A stretch of DNA of 10,762 bases from an uncultured archaeon (GTDB lineage: Archaea > Asgardarchaeota > Lokiarchaeia > Sigyniarchaeales > SOKP01). The translations under genes and the position numbers were made by a program. The stretch is taken from NCBI GenBank assembly GCA_964632315.1, contig CAZWEM010000079.1, positions 1 to 10,762 of the forward strand. The letters run 5' to 3'. Under the pieces are notes generated by a model. The model saw nothing but the letters and a program-made list of their open reading frames with translations, made no database searches and was not told where the DNA came from. Numbering within the stretch: position 1 is the first letter of the stretch; every line of letters starts with the position of its first letter. Positions 1 through 10,762 of this stretch are shown here, in pieces.

Positions 1-538
1 GCTAAGAGATGTCTGGGGTGACACGGAGCGGTTCAAATCCACCTATCTAAATCGATATCCGGGGCATTACTATACGGGAGATGGCGCGAGACGAGATGAA
101 GACGGTTATTATTGGATCTTAGGTCGACTTGATGATGTCATCAAGGTATCAGGTCACCGCATCGGAACGATGGAAGTGGAATCAGCTATAGTGAGCCATC
201 CAAAAGTGGCAGAAGCTGCAGTTGCTCCATTCCCACACAAGATTAAGGGGCAAGCAATCTGGGCATTCGTTACACTACTAAGTGGAATCGAGAAATCCGA
301 GGAATTAAGGAAGGATATCAAGATGCACGTGCGGAAGGAAATTGGACCCGTATTCCAACCAGATGTGGTTCAATTTGCAGATGATCTCCCCAAAACGAGA
401 AGTGGAAAAATCATGCGCCGTATCTTGAAAGCTATCGCGTCCGGTACGGAGATTGGAAATGTCACAACGCTAGCCGATCCTTCAGTGGTAGATGATCTAT
501 TAGCAGAACGCAAGAAACTAGATGTTGAAGTAGGATAA
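1..538 (+). CDS. acs: Acetyl-CoA synthetase (AMP-forming), 3' part; the gene starts upstream of the window
   Basis: The frame is open from base 2 ([62 protein letters not shown]...), so the ATG at 170 is internal. It carries the ACS motifs YYTGDG, [15 protein letters not shown], [12 protein letters not shown] (catalytic/acetylated Lys) and TTLADPSVV. Confidence 0.95.
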
Positions 539-540
539 TT

Positions 541-586
541 AATCTTTAACTTTTATTTTTTCTTTTAATTTTATTTATTTTTTTTA
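541..586 (+). terminator. T-rich tract, likely archaeal terminator of acs
   Basis: Several oligo-T runs immediately follow the acs TAA. Confidence 0.55.
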
Positions 587-823
587 GTGTATTTCTCATA
601 TAGTTTATATAGCCCAGACTTAATCTCAATAATACTTTTACCTACTAATTTTGAAACTGTATTTTTACATAGTAGTATTAAAAATTAAAAATTTTTTTTT
701 ATGATGGACTTCATACAATTCAGATATTCTCACATGATTCACTAGGTGAGAAATATGCTTCGGAACTACGCCATTTTACCATGAATGACTTATAGTGGTA
801 ATTTTTTGCTGGTTGAATTCATA

Positions 824-2233
824 TTAGGGGAATTGGTTAGTTGTAGCGCCTCCTATAACATTTAAAGCTCCAGCATTAAGATAAAAACTGTAATCATTAG
901 CATGAGCAACATTACCATATATAATGCTGTTGTCTCCACCCGCTCCAATTCCAAATCCATATGCATCATTGCTAACATCAGCGTTAGTGCATGAATAAAC
1001 TCCATTTCCACTAATAGTACAGTATTGAGTATTAATATATATACCATATCGATTACCAGAGTAATTCGCTGCTAAATTTTTGACTATATTTCCCGAAATA
1101 ACCGAATTATCACCATTGCTGGTCACTGTAATTCCACCATAAAAAACATCCTTAACATAATTACTTGTAATTAAAGTATGAGGTCTCGTTACAAATATTC
1201 CTGAATCACAGTTCTGAATGGAGTTTTCTGAGAGTATATTATCCCCACCCGTAATACCAGCATATATCCCATATTGAGCGTATGAAATGTGATTATTAGA
1301 GACAACATTATCGTAACCATTTAAACTAATTCCAGCTTGGGGTATACCACTAATATGGTTTTCTGATACAATATTGTCATTACTACCTCCACCAAATATA
1401 TAAATAGCAGGAAAAGCCGCCGATAATGAATATATTTCATTTCTTATTATTGTATTATTACAGGAATATGAAAGTTCAATGCCACGATCTGTATTATTTA
1501 GCAGGTTATCAGTGATCCTATTATAATCACTACTACTGCCCAAATATATTGCAAAGTCTGAACAAGCTTCAAATTTATTGCCATGAATATTATTATAATC
1601 CCCATTAATAGACACGGCATATGAAACACAACCAGAAATGACATTATAAGAAATATCTGCATAATTTCCACCACTATTAGGTTGGTAGATAGCTTGATAA
1701 ATTTGATTCATATAGCAATTCTTAACTCTGATATTATCTGATAAAATATTTATTCCCATACCAGCGGTACCTGATATTCGTGTAATTTGAACATTTTCAA
1801 TGTAAACTGGATTATTATTAATTTCCTCTATGTTAATTATTGCCTTCGAATTTGTTATCACATCTGTAACATTTAATATTAAATTTTGAATTCTACAGTA
1901 AGCAGCATTCGAGATATTAAATGACATCCAATCACCTTCAGAATGAATAGTTATAGCTGGACTTTGCCCTTGAATTACATAAGACCCCCCACCATTGACA
2001 TTTATTTCTCCATTTAGTGTAATATCATTTGTTATAGTTATTACGCCACTTTCATTACCAATAGAATCTAATGTTTGTTGAAGCTCTAAAGCTGAAGCAC
2101 AATAATAACCTGGAGGTCCTTGGATTTCTCCAACATTTAAATCGCTTATAAATACATATCCTCCAAGCCCTAATCCCGCAACGCTCAGAATAATTGCTAA
2201 AATTCCAACTATGTTACTTTTACTTTTACTCAT
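824..2233 (-). CDS. Membrane-anchored right-handed parallel beta-helix protein (NosD / pectin-lyase-like fold)
   Basis: 469 aa. N-terminal hydrophobic helix (IVGILAIILSVAGLGLGGYVFI), a short QGPPG linker, then many Asn/Gly/Ile-rich ~22-aa repeats (e.g. GISLNGYDNVVSNNHIS, NSVISGNIV). An SD-like AAGGAG lies 7 nt upstream of the ATG. Confidence 0.85.
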   Translation of the reverse strand: MSKSKSNIVGILAIILSVAGLGLGGYVFISDLNVGEIQGPPGYYCASALELQQTLDSIGNESGVITITNDITLNGEINVNGGGSYVIQGQSPAITIHSEGDWMSFNISNAAYCRIQNLILNVTDVITNSKAIINIEEINNNPVYIENVQITRISGTAGMGINILSDNIRVKNCYMNQIYQAIYQPNSGGNYADISYNVISGCVSYAVSINGDYNNIHGNKFEACSDFAIYLGSSSDYNRITDNLLNNTDRGIELSYSCNNTIIRNEIYSLSAAFPAIYIFGGGSNDNIVSENHISGIPQAGISLNGYDNVVSNNHISYAQYGIYAGITGGDNILSENSIQNCDSGIFVTRPHTLITSNYVKDVFYGGITVTSNGDNSVISGNIVKNLAANYSGNRYGIYINTQYCTISGNGVYSCTNADVSNDAYGFGIGAGGDNSIIYGNVAHANDYSFYLNAGALNVIGGATTNQFP

Positions 2234-2487
2234 ATTCTTACTCCTTTTTATTTTTTAATAGATTTAATTCTTAATTTCTTTTCTTGTTAGTTGATTTAAT
2301 TGTCATTATTTAATTATTTATTGATTAAAAAGCATTCTAAGATCTCTTACATATTCGTCAATAGAGCAAATCAGTCAAAGTTATAATCTAAATGTAATAT
2401 CTCTAAATTTTCCGATTGAAGAACAGACTCTCATTAAAGACGATCATTTCATTTGCTCAACGAAATCATATAAATATTAAAGATGTT

Positions 2488-2526
2488 TTAGCAGAACGCA
2501 AGAAACTGGATGTCGAAGTAGGTTAA
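2488..2526 (+). repeat. Displaced copy 1 of the acs 3' end (direct repeat of 500-538; encodes [12 protein letters not shown]-stop)
   Basis: 36/39 nt identical to 500-538. The three differences are all synonymous (CTA>CTG, GTT>GTC, GGA>GGT). It has its own T-tract downstream. Confidence 0.95.
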
Positions 2527-2530
2527 GCAA

Positions 2531-2550
2531 TTATTTTTTTTTCTTTTTTT
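2531..2550 (+). terminator. T-tract after the displaced acs end, likely a former acs terminator
   Basis: ttatttttttttcttttttt starts 5 nt after the TAA of copy 1. Confidence 0.45.
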
Positions 2551-2571
2551 AAAATTAATGATATTTAATAC

Positions 2572-2973
2572 CTACCAAGATCTAAGCTCTAACTTAAAAA
2601 TTTCTCTAAATTTTAAATTTGTGGAAAAAATAATGTTAGTCTTATATTTTTTGCAGGTCATTGCTATAATTTCATCGAGTAGTTCATGACTTTCGGTGTT
2701 ATTTAGCATCAATTTAATAATTTTTAAATCAAATTCATCAATAATAACATTTTCAGAAGCTTCCCATCGAGCCAGAGCTTTTTTGAATGCATTAATCTTT
2801 CCTGCTTTTCTCATTTTCCATAATAACTCTGAGATTGCGATGGTAGGAATAATCACCATGATATCTCCTTTAATAACGTCATCTTTCAGTTCTCGAAGCA
2901 GGGGAGGGATTTTTTCATAATCGTAATGAAAGTAGAATAAAACTTGAGCGTCAACTACTACAATCTGGCTCAT
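2572..2973 (-). CDS. PIN-domain (VapC-like) toxin
   Basis: 133 aa. VVVDAQV near the N-terminus, IIPTIAISELL and HELLDEIIAMT provide three PIN acidic residues. The fourth (TxD) position reads STN. It lies 3 nt downstream of an AbrB-type gene. Confidence 0.8.
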   Translation of the reverse strand: MSQIVVVDAQVLFYFHYDYEKIPPLLRELKDDVIKGDIMVIIPTIAISELLWKMRKAGKINAFKKALARWEASENVIIDEFDLKIIKLMLNNTESHELLDEIIAMTCKKYKTNIIFSTNLKFREIFKLELRSW

Positions 2974-2976
2974 TAG

Positions 2977-3246
2977 TCACTCACTTGGAAATAATGATTT
3001 TTTGGCTTCTTTTAATTCATCTTCCGTAAAAGGTGATACACCCTCAAATAGGTTATCATTAATTTCAAGGGGATGGATCTTTTTTTTGATTAAAATCGTC
3101 TTGTCCTCTTTTAATTCCATCTCAATTTCATTTTTATCCTTGATTGCCAGTTTATCTCTCCATTCCTTAGGGATTACGATTCTCCCATTTGAAGAAACTT
3201 TTTGAGTAATCTTTTCTGTCATAAACATTTCACATTCAATTGTCAT
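2977..3246 (-). CDS. AbrB/MazE/SpoVT-family DNA-binding antitoxin (start may be 3246, 3228 or 3222)
   Basis: KVSSNGRIVIPKEWRDKLAIKDKNEIEMELKEDKTILIKK is a typical AbrB swapped-hairpin motif. It has an acidic C-terminal tail and is coupled to a PIN gene. Confidence 0.9.
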   Translation of the reverse strand: MTIECEMFMTEKITQKVSSNGRIVIPKEWRDKLAIKDKNEIEMELKEDKTILIKKKIHPLEINDNLFEGVSPFTEDELKEAKKSLFPSE

Positions 3247-3280
3247 TCTAACAATGTGAATGACATTTAATATATTTTGC
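3229..3280 (-). promoter_or_regulatory. TATA-like box plus overlapping inverted-repeat operators for TA pair 1
   Basis: The minus strand reads gcaaaa-TATATTAAA, about 25 nt before the ATG at 3246. Perfect inverted repeats are TGTCATTC (3241-3248) / GAATGACA (3258-3265) and TTCACATT (3229-3236) / AATGTGAA (3253-3260). Confidence 0.6.
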
Positions 3281-3362
3281 GATCAAATATTACTTGACCA
3301 TCTTTTTTAAAATAACTATTTATAAAAGCTCATCCTACCTTATCGAATTAACGACGATTTTG

Positions 3363-3410
3363 GCATCGGGTACTGAAATCGGAAATGTCACGACGTTAGT
3401 GGATCCTTCC
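3363..3410 (+). repeat. Displaced copy 2 of acs near-3' sequence (homologous to 437-484; encodes [16 protein letters not shown])
   Basis: 38/48 nt and 15/16 aa identical to acs [16 protein letters not shown]. Eight codons differ synonymously and one differs non-synonymously (GCC>GTG). Confidence 0.92.
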
Positions 3411-3441
3411 ACAATGTTAGTTTTCGCAATCATCAGATAGG

Positions 3442-3464
3442 TTTTTAAGTCACTAAGTCACTAA
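3442..3464 (+). promoter_or_regulatory. TATA-like box and tandem direct-repeat operator for TA pair 2 (probably a leaderless transcript)
   Basis: TTTTTAA at 3442-3448 lies about 25 nt before the ATG at 3471. TAAGTCAC-TAAGTCAC-TAA occupies 3446-3464. Confidence 0.55.
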
Positions 3465-3470
3465 ATTATT

Positions 3471-3755
3471 ATGGCAACTATAAAATTTGATCGTCAAGAT
3501 GAATTAGATGAGCTTATAGCTCGCGTGTATTTAGATACTAATAAAAAATTCACTAAAAAAGATCTTTTAGAAATTATTTTCGAATTAGGCATCCAGGACT
3601 ATCATGCTTTACTTGAGAAGATAAATACCATGGAACAATCAGATTCAAAGGACCTAAGAAGGGAATTTATCAAAAAATTTTCAGGATCAATTTCAGTTTC
3701 AAATCCAGATGAGATTGAACCTAAATCAATTTGGGAAAAAGATTTAGAGGATTAA
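3471..3755 (+). CDS. Putative VapB-type antitoxin (ribbon-helix-helix-like N-terminus)
   Basis: 94 aa. MATIKFD strand followed by two helices (ELDELIARVYL, KKDLLEIIFELG) and an acidic tail. It ends 1 nt before a PIN gene. Confidence 0.7.
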   Translation: MATIKFDRQDELDELIARVYLDTNKKFTKKDLLEIIFELGIQDYHALLEKINTMEQSDSKDLRREFIKKFSGSISVSNPDEIEPKSIWEKDLED

Positions 3756-3756
3756 C

Positions 3757-4188
3757 ATGACGAGATTTTTCCTTGATACTAATATATTATGGTGGTATTT
3801 CGTCAAAAACTCAAAATATCATCAATCAATAAAAATTTACATGGATAAACTAATAATGGATGATCAAAATTCCTTTATAATAAATGAGTTCGTTGTTATT
3901 GAATTATATCATTTACTTATCAAGAAAAAAGGGGAAGATGGATTTAAAATTGCATCCTTGTTACTCAATGAAAGATATCCATTTTTAGAAGTTAAATATG
4001 ATGTACTTCATGTATCTGATTTGAAGGCAGTATTGAAGAATTTATATAAATATGGGATAACAAGTTCAATTGGTGGAAGAGATTCTACGATTATTTACAC
4101 CATGAATCGGCATAAAGTGAAAAATATTATTACAAACGATAAAGGATTTGAAAAAGTCGAGTCTCTACTTGTTCACAATCCCTTATAA
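3757..4188 (+). CDS. vapC: PIN-domain VapC toxin
   Basis: Canonical motifs FFLDTNIL, VVIELYH, GGRDSTII and IITNDKGF, with all four acidic residues present. Confidence 0.9.
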   Translation: MTRFFLDTNILWWYFVKNSKYHQSIKIYMDKLIMDDQNSFIINEFVVIELYHLLIKKKGEDGFKIASLLLNERYPFLEVKYDVLHVSDLKAVLKNLYKYGITSSIGGRDSTIIYTMNRHKVKNIITNDKGFEKVESLLVHNPL

Positions 4189-4205
4189 ATTGATAAATAA
4201 TTAGA

Positions 4206-4334
4206 ATGATAAAAATAATGATAAAAATAATTAGCCTGAACCCGAATAACGCAGCTTATAAAACATCTCAAGATAATCGAGCTAATCAATTAAACCCGAA
4301 TAATGAAGAGTATGAAGGAGAGTCTGAAGATTAA
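4206..4334 (+). CDS. Small 42-aa ORF or gene 3' remnant with two LNPNN repeats (not in the ORF track)
   Basis: Reads MIKIMIKIISLNPNNAAYKTSQDNRANQLNPNNEEYEGESED*. AACCCGAATAA is repeated at 4239 and 4293, a 54-nt / 18-codon period. A hairpin and T-tract follow. Confidence 0.5.
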   Translation: MIKIMIKIISLNPNNAAYKTSQDNRANQLNPNNEEYEGESED

Positions 4335-4381
4335 GGAAAGGAACTCAACCCTTAATTATTTTTTTTAGCTTTTTTTATTTT
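4331..4381 (+). terminator. Hairpin plus T-tract terminator
   Basis: TTAAGG...CCTTAA inverted repeat followed by two long T runs. Confidence 0.5.
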
Positions 4382-4499
4382 CATACACTTATCTCCTAAA
4401 TATTGTAGGATAAGAATAAAATATAAATAACCCAATTTTTATTTACTTTAGAGATGCGAAAATAATGAATATTACAGACATCTACGAAGACTGATCCGC

Positions 4500-5010
4500 T
4501 TGTATGACGCAGTGTTTAAGATCGTGGTATTTGGAGATTTCACTAACAAGAAAGAAACTTGTAATGGATAGATTTGTTCGCCCAATTGATTCCTCAGAGG
4601 CAAAAATGACAATAGGAGTGGACTTCATATCCAAGAGTCTTGTTGTCGATAATCAGAAGGTTAAACTTGGGATATGGAATTTTAGTGGGGAACGATTTCG
4701 CCATCTATTTCCTATCTATTGTCGGGGTGCACGAGGAGGTCTCTTCATGTTCGACACTACTTACCATGAATCCATAGCCCATGTTGATGATTGGCTGACA
4801 ATCATTAAAAAGGAAATTAAAGTATTATTTCCAATAATTTGCGTTGGCCTTACATCAAAAGATAATAATAATCGTGAGGTTTCAATTGAAGAAGGCATTA
4901 AAATAGCAAGATCTCGAGGGTTAGATGGATATATTGAATATGATGTGGAAACGGGGGAAAATATGGAAAAAATGTTCCACGCATTAGTTCAATTGATGCT
5001 TGCCGAGTAA
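4500..5010 (+). pseudogene. Rab-like small GTPase (Asgard type), frameshifted in the P-loop region, with degenerate G motifs
   Basis: The frame from TTG 4500 gives (M)YDAVFKIVVFGDFTNKKETCNG* (TAG at 4569), a typical small-GTPase N-terminus. The body (LVMDRF...MTIGVDF...KVKLGIWNFSGERFR...YCRGARG...TGENMEKMF) is in the +1 frame, which is the listed ORF 4504-5010, whose first ~15 aa look spurious. Confidence 0.75.
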
Positions 5011-5119
5011 ATCATGAATTTTCCTTTTTTTCTACTAATTGCCCTTTATATAGAGTCGTTTTAAAGCCATTCATGATGGTACTATTCTCTCTGTTTTATC
5101 CAATTTCTCTTTTTTTTTA

Positions 5120-6256
5120 TTAGCACCAGACTGGTGGTGTATATTTTTTTAAGGGTAAATTAATTATTTTTTGAGTTCGAGAAGATTCATATGACGCTAA
5201 AACCAGTTCCAAAGCTGCCCTACCATCATATATCGTTGGAATCCATTTTTCTGGAAATCCAACATCATCGTTTGAAACATCTAATGCTTGGTTTATAAAT
5301 GATCGAACCTCGCGTGCGTAAGAAAGATTCCATTTATCCTTAGGCAGTTCTTTTCCTATATTTTTCATGCTTTTTCTCCTAGTTTGTTGTTGAATCTTCA
5401 TTGGTTCTACGAAATAGGCGTGAGGAACCTCAAAAAAATAATTCCCTTTTGTTCCGTGTATCCTTCCTTTTTCTTCTCCGAATGGGTCTCCAAATATGGC
5501 TTGCGAACGTTCAAAAGATGCCGTTATGTTCTCATTTTTAAATGTTAAAATTATATTCATGTGATCTTCATTAACCCTACTTTGATTAATCCGCCGAACT
5601 TGAGCGTACACACTTTTTATATCACCAAACCACCATCTTAGCAAATCAAAATAATGGGGTCCGTGATCAAGTAAGTCTCCACCACCACAGCGCTCATCTA
5701 ACATCCTCCACATTCTTCCACCTTCAATTAGTTCTTTCTTTGGATTTGGTCCGAGATCAGGTATAGAATGATACCAAAAAATTGAAACATGAAAGATATC
5801 TCCAATTGTTTTTTTCATAATCTGTTCTTTAATATATTGAAAAGCATGATCAAATCTTTTTTGAGTAGCAGTTTGAAACAAAATTTTATTTTTCTCTACA
5901 GCCTTAATCATTTTATCAACTTCTTCTAAATTTAAACCAAGAGGTTTTTCACATAAAACATGTTTTCCATTTTCAGCGGCTCTGAGAACTTGATTAAGAT
6001 GAGCCCAGTGAGGAGAACAAATACTAACAGCATCTATATCGGGATCATCGAGTAATTCGTCAGGATTAGTATATACCTTAGGAACATTATACAAATCTTG
6101 AACTTCTTTAAGATGAGCCTTTACGGGATCAGCAATAGCTATAATTTCTGAGAGTGGGGATTTTTGATAAGTTGGTAAATGCCCGATTTTTGCAGCATCC
6201 CCGCACCCCACCACACCAACTCTTAATTTTTTCTTTGGCATAATTAATATCTTCAA
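5120..6256 (-). CDS. Gfo/Idh/MocA-family NAD(P)-dependent oxidoreductase (likely start is ATG 6241, MPKKKL)
   Basis: RVGVVGCG Rossmann motif, DAVSICSPHWAH, GKHVLCEKP, GGGDLLDHGPHYFDL. Confidence 0.93.
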   Translation of the reverse strand: MKILIMPKKKLRVGVVGCGDAAKIGHLPTYQKSPLSEIIAIADPVKAHLKEVQDLYNVPKVYTNPDELLDDPDIDAVSICSPHWAHLNQVLRAAENGKHVLCEKPLGLNLEEVDKMIKAVEKNKILFQTATQKRFDHAFQYIKEQIMKKTIGDIFHVSIFWYHSIPDLGPNPKKELIEGGRMWRMLDERCGGGDLLDHGPHYFDLLRWWFGDIKSVYAQVRRINQSRVNEDHMNIILTFKNENITASFERSQAIFGDPFGEEKGRIHGTKGNYFFEVPHAYFVEPMKIQQQTRRKSMKNIGKELPKDKWNLSYAREVRSFINQALDVSNDDVGFPEKWIPTIYDGRAALELVLASYESSRTQKIINLPLKKYTPPVWC

Positions 6257-6351
6257 AGCAAGAAAATAAAAAAACTTTATTTAGATACTTAATCTATATA
6301 CTAAAGATCTTTAGAATTCATAATAAAACAAACTGTTCATGAGAGATTGAT

Positions 6352-7041
6352 ATGAAAGAGCCCATGTTTAAGAATATGACCCTAATAGATTTATCTGTTC
6401 CAATCTATAATGATGCTCCAATTTGGAGTGCTGAACCCCGGTGTATCGTTCATAACTGGTTTATTATAGGTCGAAATAGAGGACAAGAAGAAAGAATAAA
6501 CATGAAGTATTTTTGCATGTCTGGTCACCAAGGAACTCACATAGATGCTCCTTACCACCTCAATAATGAAGGAGTTAAGCTTGATGAAATCCCTTTAAAT
6601 AGATTTATGGGTTGGTGCAAGGTTCTAGATTTCACGGATAAAAAACTAGGAGATCACTATCAACCTGATGATTTTATTAAAAAAAATATCCAAAAAGGTG
6701 ATAATATTCTAATTCATACAGGATGGGACAAATATTTTGATCCTTTTGATGAGAAATATTTTAACATGGATCATCCACATTTTTCAGAGGACGCAATAAA
6801 TTGGATTTTAGATAATAAAATTGGAATCCTGGGCATGGATACCCCCAGTACGGATCCTGCTCTAATAGACCATCCAAAAATATTCAAAAATAGGGAAGAT
6901 TTTCCGATTGTTATAGAATTATTGACTAATCTCGACAAAATCGTTGATAAAGAAGTCTATCTGATCGCATTACCTATTAATGTTAAAGAAGGGGATGGTG
7001 CATGGATACGTGCCGTGTGTTTTGTTCCAAACGATTCTTAA
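6352..7041 (+). CDS. Cyclase-family metal-dependent hydrolase (kynurenine formamidase KynB-like)
   Basis: LIDLSVPI, the signature HQGTHIDAPYH (HxGTHxDxPxH), LIHTGW, GMDTPSTD, IELLTNLD and ALPINVKEGDGAWIRA. Confidence 0.92.
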   Translation: MKEPMFKNMTLIDLSVPIYNDAPIWSAEPRCIVHNWFIIGRNRGQEERINMKYFCMSGHQGTHIDAPYHLNNEGVKLDEIPLNRFMGWCKVLDFTDKKLGDHYQPDDFIKKNIQKGDNILIHTGWDKYFDPFDEKYFNMDHPHFSEDAINWILDNKIGILGMDTPSTDPALIDHPKIFKNREDFPIVIELLTNLDKIVDKEVYLIALPINVKEGDGAWIRAVCFVPNDS

Positions 7042-7194
7042 AAAAAGAGAAATCATTTCCGTGCATCATTCAAGATATCAAAACGAAATTCGAGCATAAC
7101 TTGATCTATATATAATAATAAATTATTATAGAATTTCACTAGAAGGCGTTTTAACAGAAGCTAAGTTCTCATCGAATCTCTTTCTTCCATAGAA

Positions 7195-7258
7195 GGGACT
7201 TTAAGTCATGGGACGAGTCCCCCAATTTGGGGACACTCTCTTCCAGAATTTATATAAG
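7195..7258 (+). promoter_or_regulatory. TATA box with an upstream GGGAC/GTCCC palindrome cluster for the surface-protein gene
   Basis: TTTATATA at 7249-7256. GGGAC at 7195, 7210 and 7230, and GTCCC at 7217. Confidence 0.5.
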
Positions 7259-7318: not shown

Positions 7319-10300
7319 ATGAAACATAATAAACTCATGGTTAGCGTGCTCTTTCTCGCATTCTTGGGCCTTGCGTGCTCATTTGGCTGCTATAACTCTC
7401 CTTCTACAGATTCAGAAAGTTTAATTACAGAACCAGATCCCGAAACAAGCGCGGGAGAGATCAATATCACAACTCCAGAAACTAAGACGTATACTAGCCC
7501 CATGAGTGGATACTATCCTGGAACATACAGTTTTGATGATGAAATCAGTGGGTTATATGGTGATGCTATGGACTTTCTTGACGAATACCATGGCTCTTCC
7601 CCTAGTAGCTATTGTTATATTAGAACAATAACAAATTATGATGGACATATGAGTGAATTGCTCGTACAAGATGCGCAAGGTGGATCTTATACCTCTGGCA
7701 CTCATCACATTGATTCACCTCAATCTTCTGGGACTATAGAATTTTTATTGAATATCCATTTTGGTCTAGATAGCGGGTCCACTTTAAGAAGACAATACTT
7801 ATCTTTTCGAGCTTTTGATGGTACCATTGGGTTTAGAGCAATGATTGAAATTCATGATGGAGATATTTTATATTATGATGGATCAAATTGGCAAGAGATT
7901 GTATCTGGTTTAAATTATGTGGTTTGGTATCATCATTCGATTTCATTTAATTGTAATGGTGGCACAAACGGAAATTTCACTTGGATAGTCAGCAATGAAG
8001 AAGGAGAAGAAATTAGTAGAGTAGAAAACATAGAATTTGAAAATAAGTTGTCTTTAGTTGAAGAAATACATTTTGAATCCGTTCTTGGAGATTATGGAGG
8101 ACATTGCGTATATGATGCCTTTGGATTCAGTTGGGATCCAAATTATAATGTCGGTGATAATTTAAAAGAAGGATTACTTCTAAGTTATGATTCTAGTGTC
8201 AATTTTGATTGGCAGGGATATTCATTAGATGGTCAAACCAACAAAACTATAAATGGAAATTATACAATTCCATTGCCTTCAGATGGACAACATTATATTC
8301 AGGTGTTTGGAAATGATAGTTTAGGAACGATCTATGAGTCAGAGGTTCGTTACTTTGATGTAGATGCGAATCCAATTGATATTACCATAATTTCACCCCT
8401 TTCCAACGATCTTTTTCAGACGACGCCCCCCGATTTTGAGATTTTCATCGATGATCTTGATCTCAATGCCACGTGGTATTCAATAGACGGAGGAATTACA
8501 AGCATTCCATTTACTGGTTTTATTGGAACAATCGATCAAGTAGAATGGGATAAGATTTTTAATGGAACAGTTACCGTTGGCTTCTATGCCAACGATTCCG
8601 CGAATCGTATTAGTTATGAGTCCGTCACCGTTAGGAAGGATATCTTGGGGCCCATTATCACGGTGATTTCCCCTCAAGACGAAGACGTGCTTGGATTTAA
8701 TGCGCCTAATTATGCGTTATCAATAGAAGAATTCAATCTTGATGAAATTTGGTGTTCGTTGGATGATGGAATCACCACTTTTCCACTTTATGGTCTAATG
8801 GGAACCCTCAACCAAGGAGAGTGGGAAAAATTTCCAGCTGGAGAAATGAATATTCGATTTTATGCCAACGACAGCTTGGGTCATGAATCGTTCAGTGATG
8901 TAGTGGTTGAAAAAGATCTCACGTCTCCAGAGATATTTATCAATTCACTTGCTTACTTTACTAATAATATCTTCGGTGATTTTGCTCCCGATTATGACAT
9001 TACAATCATTGAGGGAAACTTGGACTCTTACTGGTACACGTTAGATAACGGTGAAACAAACATATCTATCAGTAGCTTTGCAGGTTCGTTCAATGAATTC
9101 GAATGGGACAAGCTTGGAAACGGAACATTGATTATTAAATTTTATGCGAGAGATGAGGCTGGAAATCTTGGATCTGTTTCAGCGTTAATCAGAAAGGATA
9201 TCATCGCCCCTATTATTGCCATTAATTCTCCCAATCAGTACGAATTATTTGGGACAGCGCCACCTGAGTTTGAGCTTTCCATACTTGAAGCGAATCTTCA
9301 ATCATCTTGGTATTCTCTTGATAGGGGTGTTACGACTTATCCCTTCACTGGATTAAGTGGAACAATAAATTTCGCAGAATGGAACAAATTTTCTAATGGA
9401 ACAGTGACGATAACCTTCTCAGCAGTCGACAGTTCGCTTTCACAAAATTACGCAGAAACATCGGTCATGGTTTATAAAGATGTCGTTGGTCCCATCATTG
9501 ACGTAATCAATCCTACTCAGAATGAGGTGTTTGGATCTGAAGCACCACAATATGAGTTGTTAATCGAGGAATTCCGTTTGGATTCCATTTGGTATTCCCT
9601 TGATTATGGAGTAACTGTGTTAGCTTTATCTTCTCTAACTGGAACTCTCGACCAAGCAGCATGGGAATCGAAAGGAGGTGGTACAGTACCAATCCGCTTT
9701 TATGCCAATGATAGTTTAGGACACGAATCCTTTATTGACGTGTTGGTTGTTAAAGATTTAATTCATCCCGTTGTAACCATAAATTCACCAAATAAGGGAG
9801 AAGTGTTCGGCTCGACTTCTCCTGATTATGATATCTCCATAATGGAATCTCACTTGGAGTCATACTGGTATACCATAGATGGTGGGACCACGAATATTAC
9901 GATAGGAAGCCTAACGGGAACAATCAGTCAAACGGAATGGAATAAAAAAGGAAATGGTACGGTCACGATTCGATTTTATGCCCGAGATGAAGGTGGTAAT
10001 GAAGCACATGCGGAATTGATGGTGAGAAAAGACATTAACGTGCCACTGATTAGCATCATTTCACCCAGCATATCAGATGTGACCGGTCATACTCCCCCAG
10101 ACTTCGAGTTATCGGTAACAGAACCTAATCTTGATTCCATGTGGTATACCTTGGATGATGGAACAACCACGTATCCTATATCAGCATTATCAGGGACTAT
10201 TGACTTAGCAGAGTGGAATAAGTTCGGAGAAGGAATGATCACGATTAAGTTCCATGCCGAAGATAGTGCCGGAAACCAAGCATTTTCCGAAGTACAAGTT

Positions 10301-10699
10301 GAAAAGGATTTAACCAAGCCGGTCATAACAATCAATAAACCAGAAATTGGAGATGTTTTCGAAGCGTTTTCTCCAATTTATAGCATTACAATTGATGAAA
10401 TAAATTTGCACTCCTATTGGTATTCATTGGACGGGGGTATTACAAATATTTCGATAACTGAACTTACTGGTACGATATCCGAAAACGAATGGATTGATCT
10501 CTCAAATGGCCATGTGACCCTTACGTTCTATGCGAAAGATGAAGGAGGAAATGTGGGGTCTGCTCACGTTTTGATCACCAAAAACGCTCCAGAAAAATCA
10601 ACACCGCCTCCAGCAATTCTGGGATACGATCTCTCTTTAATAATTGGAATTTTCAGCATAATTTCGATTTTAATCATTCGAAAGCGACTCAAATCCTAA
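7319..10699 (+). CDS. Large secreted cell-surface (glyco)protein with tandem Ig-like repeats and a Loki-CTERM-type C-terminal anchor
   Basis: Signal-peptide-like N-terminus, a beta-rich lectin/LamG-like region, then eight ~92-aa repeats (PxIxIxSP...WYSLDxG...FYAxDxxGN...KD). Many NxS/T sequons. The C-terminus is PPAILGY + TM helix + RKRLKS. Confidence 0.88.
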   Translation: MKHNKLMVSVLFLAFLGLACSFGCYNSPSTDSESLITEPDPETSAGEINITTPETKTYTSPMSGYYPGTYSFDDEISGLYGDAMDFLDEYHGSSPSSYCYIRTITNYDGHMSELLVQDAQGGSYTSGTHHIDSPQSSGTIEFLLNIHFGLDSGSTLRRQYLSFRAFDGTIGFRAMIEIHDGDILYYDGSNWQEIVSGLNYVVWYHHSISFNCNGGTNGNFTWIVSNEEGEEISRVENIEFENKLSLVEEIHFESVLGDYGGHCVYDAFGFSWDPNYNVGDNLKEGLLLSYDSSVNFDWQGYSLDGQTNKTINGNYTIPLPSDGQHYIQVFGNDSLGTIYESEVRYFDVDANPIDITIISPLSNDLFQTTPPDFEIFIDDLDLNATWYSIDGGITSIPFTGFIGTIDQVEWDKIFNGTVTVGFYANDSANRISYESVTVRKDILGPIITVISPQDEDVLGFNAPNYALSIEEFNLDEIWCSLDDGITTFPLYGLMGTLNQGEWEKFPAGEMNIRFYANDSLGHESFSDVVVEKDLTSPEIFINSLAYFTNNIFGDFAPDYDITIIEGNLDSYWYTLDNGETNISISSFAGSFNEFEWDKLGNGTLIIKFYARDEAGNLGSVSALIRKDIIAPIIAINSPNQYELFGTAPPEFELSILEANLQSSWYSLDRGVTTYPFTGLSGTINFAEWNKFSNGTVTITFSAVDSSLSQNYAETSVMVYKDVVGPIIDVINPTQNEVFGSEAPQYELLIEEFRLDSIWYSLDYGVTVLALSSLTGTLDQAAWESKGGGTVPIRFYANDSLGHESFIDVLVVKDLIHPVVTINSPNKGEVFGSTSPDYDISIMESHLESYWYTIDGGTTNITIGSLTGTISQTEWNKKGNGTVTIRFYARDEGGNEAHAELMVRKDINVPLISIISPSISDVTGHTPPDFELSVTEPNLDSMWYTLDDGTTTYPISALSGTIDLAEWNKFGEGMITIKFHAEDSAGNQAFSEVQVEKDLTKPVITINKPEIGDVFEAFSPIYSITIDEINLHSYWYSLDGGITNISITELTGTISENEWIDLSNGHVTLTFYAKDEGGNVGSAHVLITKNAPEKSTPPPAILGYDLSLIIGIFSIISILIIRKRLKS
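8372..10585 (+). repeat. Eight tandem ~276-nt intragenic Ig-like domain repeats
   Basis: Eight W[YC][ST][LI]DxG motifs, each paired with an F[YHS]AxD motif at regular spacing. Confidence 0.85.
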
Positions 10700-10722
10700 T
10701 TTTATCCATTTTTTTCTTTTTC
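10700..10722 (+). terminator. T-tract terminator
   Basis: ttttatccatttttttctttttc directly after the stop codon. Confidence 0.5.
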
Positions 10723-10762
10723 CAAATTAATTTCCTATCTGATTGGGGATTGGATCAATAAT

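Follow-up and report, generated by a model that had tools for sequence, protein, structure and literature searches.

Relics of earlier acs 3' ends mark a probable gene-capture hotspot in an Asgard archaeon and its relatives

Introduction

In E. coli, e14 and phage 21 integrate in icd and supply the gene with a replacement 3' end that differs from the original mostly by silent changes, leaving the old end behind as a pseudogene fragment. Archaeal integrative elements and casposons also insert at 3' ends, namely those of tRNA genes or of aEF-2. Asgard archaea (Promethearchaeota) are the closest known relatives of eukaryotes; to our knowledge the elements described in them rely on integrases, and we know of little work on how foreign genes are taken up into their large genomes. 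Here we describe a 10,762-nt stretch of DNA from a lokiarchaeal metagenome bin (hereafter the window, which is the entire contig C79, GenBank CAZWEM010000079.1), in which the 3' part of acs, the gene for acetyl-CoA synthetase, is followed by a row of accessory genes punctuated by two copies of the acs tail, c1 and c2. Comparable copies stand behind acs in relatives, and we argue that they are very probably scars of insertions that replaced the end of the gene.

The locus shares features with several of these systems and departs from each. e14 and phage 21 are prophage-type elements of 15-40 kb with their own integrase and a fixed att site, whereas the units here measure 0.7-7 kb, have no integrase that we could find, repeat variable extents of the target and point to serial events. 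Archaeal integrative elements and casposons resemble it in inserting at gene 3' ends, in repeating the target end and sometimes in leaving tandem remnants, but they encode an integrase or casposase and carry terminal repeats and target-site duplications, none of which is present here. Integron arrays, integrase-less attC clusters and additive flexible islands at tRNA genes likewise consist of small, often single-gene cassettes, rich in toxin-antitoxin (TA) pairs, with a short repeated spacer; unlike in integrons, the repeated spacer here is acs coding sequence, no IntI was found, and the array is built outward from a protein-coding gene's end. Campbell-type integration would also yield an intact gene, cargo and a direct partial copy running into the original downstream DNA, with each junction inherited together with its cargo, but most knowledge of it comes from plasmids and laboratory use, the repeats here are short and diverged, and its operation at this locus is a proposal of ours.

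A further parallel comes from yeasts of the genera Torulaspora and Lachancea, where WHO homing elements occupy the FBA1 aldolase gene (Coughlan et al. 2020, PMC7282813). Their cargo is the endonuclease itself, all gene fragments start at its cut site and need not stay open, and the targets are identical upstream of a sharp point and ~80-85% identical downstream of it (PMC7282813). As we propose for acs, the 3' end of a housekeeping gene is replaced repeatedly and the old ends are pushed downstream into arrays with cargo. The acs locus differs in its accessory, defence and toxin-antitoxin cargo (the gene beside c1 encodes a beta-helix surface protein, not an endonuclease), in the mostly scattered starts of its fragments, in showing no homing nuclease that we could see, and in its archaeal host. 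Our small search of the literature on Asgard mobile elements and archaeal variable hotspots returned no mention of acs or of gene-end relics, and a prior description is possible.

Results

The window opens inside acs, of which it holds the last 178 codons (2-538, + strand; Pfam AMP-binding_C 1.8e-26), the remaining 5' part lying on contig C25. A repeat search of the window aligned 494-561 with 2482-2549 (68 nt, 81% identity) and 437-483 with 3363-3409 (47 nt, 81%). Read by hand, 2488-2526 matches 500-538 at 36/39 nt, 12/12 residues and the stop codon, and 3363-3410 matches 437-484 at 38/48 nt and 15/16 residues. Twelve codons are changed across both copies, all but one synonymously, the exception being GCC>GTG (Ala>Val); 11 or more synonymous changes out of 12 has p ~2e-6, assuming that a random codon change is silent about 1/4 of the time. 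Searched against ~0.4 Mb, a nucleotide profile built from 31 acs tails detects the two copies at E = 1.2e-9 and 9.4e-9. Both c1 and c2 are real. A preliminary description of this DNA, made from the sequence alone, had reported two segments matching the end of acs with 11 of 12 changed codons synonymous and had traced them to acs alleles under purifying selection; the E-values of ~1e-9 verify the first point and the synonymous pattern bears out the second.

The copies differ in what they retain. c1 (2482-2533, +), which we read as the relic of an earlier acs tail, starts at the equivalent of acs nt 491 and holds 14-15 codons and the stop, with homology continuing ~40 nt past the stop into a T-rich, terminator-like sequence that runs to ~2568. 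The resident copy of this duplicated unit (491-582, +) comprises the last 16 codons, the stop and a T-rich terminator, with 76-81% identity to 2482-2566. c2 (3363-3410, +), read as the relic of an older tail, holds 16 codons and lacks the last 17; its match ends exactly at the equivalent of nt 484, the six bases beyond being unrelated. The two are complementary pieces that meet within 6 nt and stand in reversed order, the tail end first. c2 stems from the interior of the tail, with its 3' side truncated at nt 484, and is not a displaced whole tail; in this detail the preliminary description holds only in part. That description had proposed to compare the copies with acs alleles of other strains, and only one of them matches such an allele better than the resident gene: c2 matches the allele of species G043 at 43/48 nt and the resident at 38/48, whereas c1 is closest to the resident (33/36 nt, against at most 31/36 for any other species' allele). 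With so few sites, the difference between c1 and c2 in divergence from the resident tail (3/36 against 10/48) is not significant. At position 3393, within c2, one non-synonymous change separates strains, as fits a relic no longer under selection. A T-rich stretch at 4349-4382 (+), which belongs to repeat family D2 and resembles the acs stop and terminator of relatives, may be the last remnant of the oldest tail; it is of low complexity and weak as evidence.

Four other samples, assembled independently, yield 1984-5373 again at 98-99.8% identity, with the junctions covered by L065 (1984-3218), L064 (2501-4234) and L061 (3231-5373), so an assembly chimera is unlikely. Samples containing the stretch come from salt marsh and marine sediment. 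An acs paralogue had been named as a possible source of the copies; the 4.45-Mb assembly holds no second true acs, its other AMP-binding genes being <=36% identical, and a paralogue does not explain the copies.

Relics of acs tails are not confined to this genome. Profile and protein searches detect them in 6 of the 28 same-genus species genomes that have a detectable acs tail, namely this genome, G005, G019 (two or three relics), G021 (two), G022 and G043. With a motif for the "a" part of the tail, most genus genomes give one match, G005 and G021 two each and G019 three (reversed patterns, used as a control, were nearly without matches), and a tail-end motif adds the short relic in G022. The closed genome G038, which represents another genus, has a relic 16 kb downstream of its acs. 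A metagenome scan with the common tail motif returned 63 contigs, about 20 of them with relics: 14 carry either a full acs with one or two relics or two to three relics, and a further 6 carry solitary ones. An array has up to three relics. Each points the same way as the one intact acs that precedes it; nearly all continue through the stop and terminator into the following DNA, which for most is conserved. Right-truncated relics that show no permutation are found in G019 (p2), L091, L097 and L139. Tail-pattern matches in G041:C19, G046:C5, G055:C130 and G009 lie inside other genes and were set aside as chance.

Between acs and the relics stand one to seven accessory, toxin-antitoxin or defence genes. 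The metabolic cargo includes TPR-nitrilase, HAD/ATC hydrolase, a URO-D-type methyltransferase with a corrinoid protein, peptidase M20, ThuA and cupin genes; the toxin-antitoxin cargo includes VapBC and HicB genes; and the defence cargo includes Schlafen/AlbA, a homologue of Lamassu LmuB, a cyclase with a Pycsar-type effector, and an OLD nuclease. Toxin-antitoxin pairs are frequent beside short relics. Identical junctions go with identical cargo (L035/L142, L082/L097, L036/L101 and L043/L096), which indicates that cargo and relic are inherited as one block.

Relative to the resident tail, the ratios of synonymous to non-synonymous codon changes are 19:3, 18:5, 15:1 and 15:1 in younger relics and 13:11, 12:13 and 21:20 in older ones. 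Younger relics thus carry mostly silent changes and older ones do not, from which we conclude that the copies diverged within working genes and decayed afterwards. A native-tail test in G005 and G021 gave no clear signal. The clearest pair of states comes from L109 and G049. Over residues 501-600 the two acs genes agree at 100%, and from there to the end at 73-83% (about 78%), a chimeric target of the kind that WHO elements leave. Between acs and relic, L109 contains a 2.6-kb TPR-nitrilase gene that G049 lacks, and the 4 kb after that relic match at 92% the DNA that directly follows acs in G049. The flank match shows the site to be occupied in L109 and empty in G049, with the gene end exchanged. 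With variable cargo, further tail copies and this pair, the view of the acs 3' end as a gene-capture hotspot holds within the clade, and the mosaic acs, with its drop at ~residue 600, upholds the proposed replacement of the resident tail. The suggestion that arrays are ordered by age fails in L085, where the nearer relic is more decayed than the farther one.

The left ends of the relics fall at residues 563, 577, 583, 588, 599, 603, 617, 620, 633 and ~646 of the 660 in acs, and no shared motif was found on the cargo side of the cargo/relic junctions. Scanned with Pfam, neither ~58 cargo ORFs nor the 10 ORFs of the window include an integrase, and the only mobile-element match in the scanned cargo is one IS110 in G038. 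Tyrosine recombinases (PF00589) are absent from this contig and from the vicinity of acs in 5 genomes; in this genome they occur only on C56 and C116, and in G038 the nearest lies >170 kb from acs. Nor do the ~58 cargo ORFs include nucleases besides PIN, HicA or OLD-type defence or toxin genes. A 148-aa ORF between acs and the relic of G022 was considered as a nuclease and rejected as a low-complexity, Lys/Glu-rich frame. The acs-tail motifs matched no viral contig in IMG/VR. With left ends scattered over the last ~100 codons and no recombinase, a single att-type site is unlikely. The preliminary description had left the joining to either a recombinase or homology-anchored recombination; no recombinase appears in or near the arrays, and we favour homology-based recombination by the host.

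Self-comparison of the genome (G000) returned the same order of gene, cargo and direct copy of the gene's last 70-170 nt, stop included, at four other genes: ahcY, hypB and two of unknown function, with the copy 0.8-3.8 kb downstream. The duplicated ends are C16:55188-55326 and 58981-59118, C51:18993-19166 and 21264-21437, C42:43085-43192 and 41910-42017, and C7:53288-53435 and 52023-52169. The ahcY cargo consists of genes for a SIR2-TPR protein and a CAAX protease, and that of one of the unknown genes is a glyoxalase-family gene. No nuclease domain was found at the hypB locus.

By Pfam, the gene order of the window is acs (+), a beta-helix/NosD-like gene (-), the toxin-antitoxin modules TA1 (-) and TA2 (+), a Ras-family GTPase, a GFO/IDH oxidoreductase, a cyclase and a 1126-aa Ig-repeat protein. 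The beta-helix/NosD-like gene, for a predicted secreted protein (824-2233, -; Pfam Beta_helix 6e-26, NosD 4.5e-21), lies with its upstream region at 583-2481 and would be the youngest cargo; it has no close homologue in 42 genus genomes and no paralogue in its own. TA1 (2534-3278, -) consists of a predicted PIN toxin gene (2572-2973; 7e-8) and a MazE/AbrB antitoxin gene (2977-3246; MazE_antitoxin 3.5e-14). Its limits are set by homologues, which reach 85-87% nucleotide identity in G016 and G006 and 71-72% in nine other genomes; in G006 and several metagenome strains the module sits behind the end of an Ig-repeat gene instead. TA2 (3411-4361, +) consists of an upstream region, an antitoxin-like 94-aa gene (3471-3755), a predicted PIN toxin gene (3757-4188; 9e-11) that follows it after a 1-nt gap, and a 42-aa ORF (4206-4334). 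In both modules the small antitoxin gene lies immediately upstream of the PIN gene in one operon, as in VapBC and MazE-PIN modules. Homologues of TA2 in G057, G041 and G017 are 79-80% identical. Both families occupy other loci in other species, so the modules are not specific to acs.

c2 is wedged between the upstream/promoter region of TA2 and a ~60-nt element, M (3303-3362, +). Element M immediately precedes a TA2-type module in G057 (L072, G057:C22, ~1450-1500) as well as in G041 (L073, G041:C139, 810-855 and 1659-1719), where a further copy stands behind the module. Counted over three species, the element is conserved and borders TA2-type modules at one end or at both; it may act as a promoter/operator or serve recombination. 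In this genome it is single copy and does not form a repeat family. For the 20 nt after c2 (3411-3430) no source was found elsewhere in the genome or in the compared loci, and they are probably diverged TA2 upstream sequence. Within the 26 nt at 3411-3436, 5-6 positions differ between strains that are otherwise ~98% identical. The 42-aa ORF, with its repeated Asn-Pro-Asn-Asn motifs, is conserved exactly in contigs of four other samples.

The homology of strain variants to the window ends at 4361-4376. The strains of L062, L063, L066 and L067 match the window at 95-98% and depart from it immediately behind TA2: in L066 and L067 the Ras-oxidoreductase-cyclase block (4377-7216) is absent and an Ig-repeat gene follows directly, and L062 and L063 have only a 440-nt 3' fragment of the Ig-repeat gene and then a second PIN1-like copy (93%). 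The Ras-family GTPase gene (4504-5010, +; Pfam Ras 4.8e-23) is a conserved landmark past the variable stretch, with homologues 12-16 kb downstream of acs in four relatives and directly after a TA2-type module in G041. The 1126-aa secreted protein (7319-10699) is built of tandem units of ~276-282 nt encoding Big_13-type Ig domains, and related strains have 820-aa versions or only 3' fragments. No Rfam families or tRNA genes were found within the window.

The bin measures 4.45 Mb in 119 contigs, with 33% G+C and an estimated contamination of 8.6%. Positions 1-117 of the window overlap the end of C25 by 117 nt, inside acs, and positions 10708-10762 overlap the end of C30 by 55 nt; beyond that overlap C30 carries a MazE-like and PIN pair on the opposite strand. 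Many relatives' contigs likewise end within a few kb after acs, which suggests that strain variation breaks assemblies just behind the gene. The acs protein is 86-92% identical to those of genus relatives. Outside Asgard relatives its C-terminus (2-538) is best matched by proteobacterial Acs, at 61-67% identity, and the gene here may be of bacterial type.

Discussion

The relics and their shared orientation, their recurrence in relatives, the empty and occupied pair, the mosaic acs and the absence of recombinase genes were read directly from the assemblies, and we are confident that the relics are scars of tail-replacing insertions at the acs 3' end. The fuller account, in which earlier acs 3' ends were left behind by successive insertions of accessory DNA that host recombination joined to the gene, we regard as probable, with some reserve. 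That host recombination does the joining alone seems to us to have slightly less than an even chance. In the course of events that we envisage, DNA from a diverged relative would bring its own acs 3' end and terminator followed by cargo, and recombination within acs would join the resident 5' part to the incoming end, so that acs stays intact. The old end would be pushed downstream, still attached to the DNA that formerly followed acs. In the window, an older step would have brought in TA1 and element M, leaving a relic that began at the equivalent of nt 437 and of which c2 would be the survivor; a younger step would have brought the beta-helix gene with a new tail, leaving c1 with its start at the equivalent of nt 491; and the older relic would have lost its last 17 codons, either through insertion of TA2 into it or through a small deletion.

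Joining might occur by two routes: a double crossover with a donor that already carries the array, or single-crossover, Campbell-type entry of a circular unit made of tail and cargo. Both routes predict the layout of the window and the inheritance of junctions together with cargo, and the duplication of c1 together with ~40 nt of terminator fits a tail-plus-terminator unit. Each new unit would first have to be made by a rare, one-off illegitimate join. Toxin-antitoxin pairs are known to stabilise integrons and genomic islands, and because of this role we speculate that toxin-antitoxin cargo would guard arrays against loss by recombination between the direct repeats.

Several observations weigh against this account. 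Between relic and resident tail, identity reaches no more than 68-92% over 40-300 nt, which makes a poor substrate for homologous recombination if the short repeat supplies all the homology. c2 could be a 48-nt insertion into an old junction between element M and TA2 rather than a truncated relic, because element M directly precedes TA2-type modules in G041 and G057 where no acs piece intervenes. An empty site for the beta-helix cassette was not retrieved from any near-identical strain, and a metagenome scan with the tail pattern specific to this genome returned no match. Finally, breakpoints concentrate in a hot zone of the acs tail at 484-498 (+): c2 ends at 484, and c1 and three other assembled short relics with unrelated cargo (G019:C120, G022 and L090) start at 491-497. 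Logan contigs from other samples fall in the same zone, X1 being foreign up to a loose end at 484, X6 starting at 491 and X3 having a joint at 498. This last joint goes back from the end of TA2 (4366) through 16 other letters to 498; it could reflect a tandem copy, a circle or a short relic of the tail behind TA2, and it suggests that TA2 is followed by a tail end in some strains. The Logan evidence consists of assembled contigs, so that the lack of one joining 499 to 2488 carries no weight. The clustering at 484-498 hints at a preferred cut site, which pure homologous recombination would not predict.

As recombination alone leaves that clustering unexplained, we keep alive a model in which acs is cleaved at ~nt 484-498 by a homing-type nuclease that either works in trans or has since disappeared from the cargo, and the break is repaired from a resistant, recoded tail with its cargo, so that relics starting at the cut site are displaced ends, as with WHO elements at yeast FBA1. 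The breakpoints do cluster there in independent contexts, and the synonymous recoding and the chimeric acs with its sharp drop in identity match the description of WHO targets (PMC7282813). But the ~58 cargo ORFs include no nuclease other than PIN, HicA and OLD-type genes, and most relics start far from 484-498, whereas in WHO clusters all fragments start at the cleavage site; we consider the model unlikely. Integrative elements with a tyrosine or serine recombinase and an att site in the acs tail, as for e14, with the recombinase lost or acting from elsewhere, would leave direct repeats of the target 3' end on both sides of the cargo, which is the classical footprint, and the tyrosine recombinase genes on C56 and C116 could in principle serve. 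Against them, no integrase occurs in or next to more than 20 arrays, the closed genome included, the cargo is often a single gene, the left ends of the repeats are scattered with no common junction core, and no IMG/VR viral contig carries the acs tail, all of which makes this reading decidedly unlikely.

The reversed order of c1 and c2 could also have arisen if c1, TA1, element M and c2 (2482-3410) had been one circle with a contiguous tail copy, opened at 484-491 and inserted upstream of TA2. Such a minicircle would account for the circular permutation, with the b part first and the a part last, and for two exactly complementary copies that bracket TA1; their divergences from the resident (3/36 and 10/48) do not differ significantly, and the joint that goes back in one run suggests that permuted or tandem forms exist nearby. 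However, element M lies directly upstream of TA2-type modules in two other species, so that its position is conserved and not imported; the breakpoints of strain variants at 2306, 2411 and 3307 differ from 2481|3411; and right-truncated relics arise elsewhere without permutation. We hold this reading to be very improbable. Scarcely credible, finally, are chance matches, remains of a full-length acs paralogue in decay, or strains assembled into a chimera. The contamination estimate of the bin and the contig break inside acs speak for caution, but chance is opposed by the E-values, a paralogue by the reversed, non-collinear order of pieces that total 87 nt, and a chimera by junctions that recur in the independent assemblies of four other samples.

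If tail-replacing insertion is the correct reading, populations of these archaea repeatedly gain genes behind a central metabolic gene that is kept intact by a swap of its end, with no visible recombinase. The acs scars would account for the frequent assembly breaks just behind acs in this genus, and they would serve as handy markers when the exchange of genes between species is followed in metagenomic data. Should the same process act at several genes, as the four other loci suggest, it would be a general mechanism. It is tempting to go further and speculate that Asgard genomes use a recombinase-free cassette system, in which the last 40-300 nt of a conserved gene, a terminator and cargo form a mobile unit that enters and leaves by host recombination or after a nuclease cut at ~nt 484-498, and that builds arrays behind acs, ahcY, hypB and other genes. 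We think this broader proposal possible but doubtful; if true, it would give archaea a general route by which to collect defence and accessory genes from diverged relatives.

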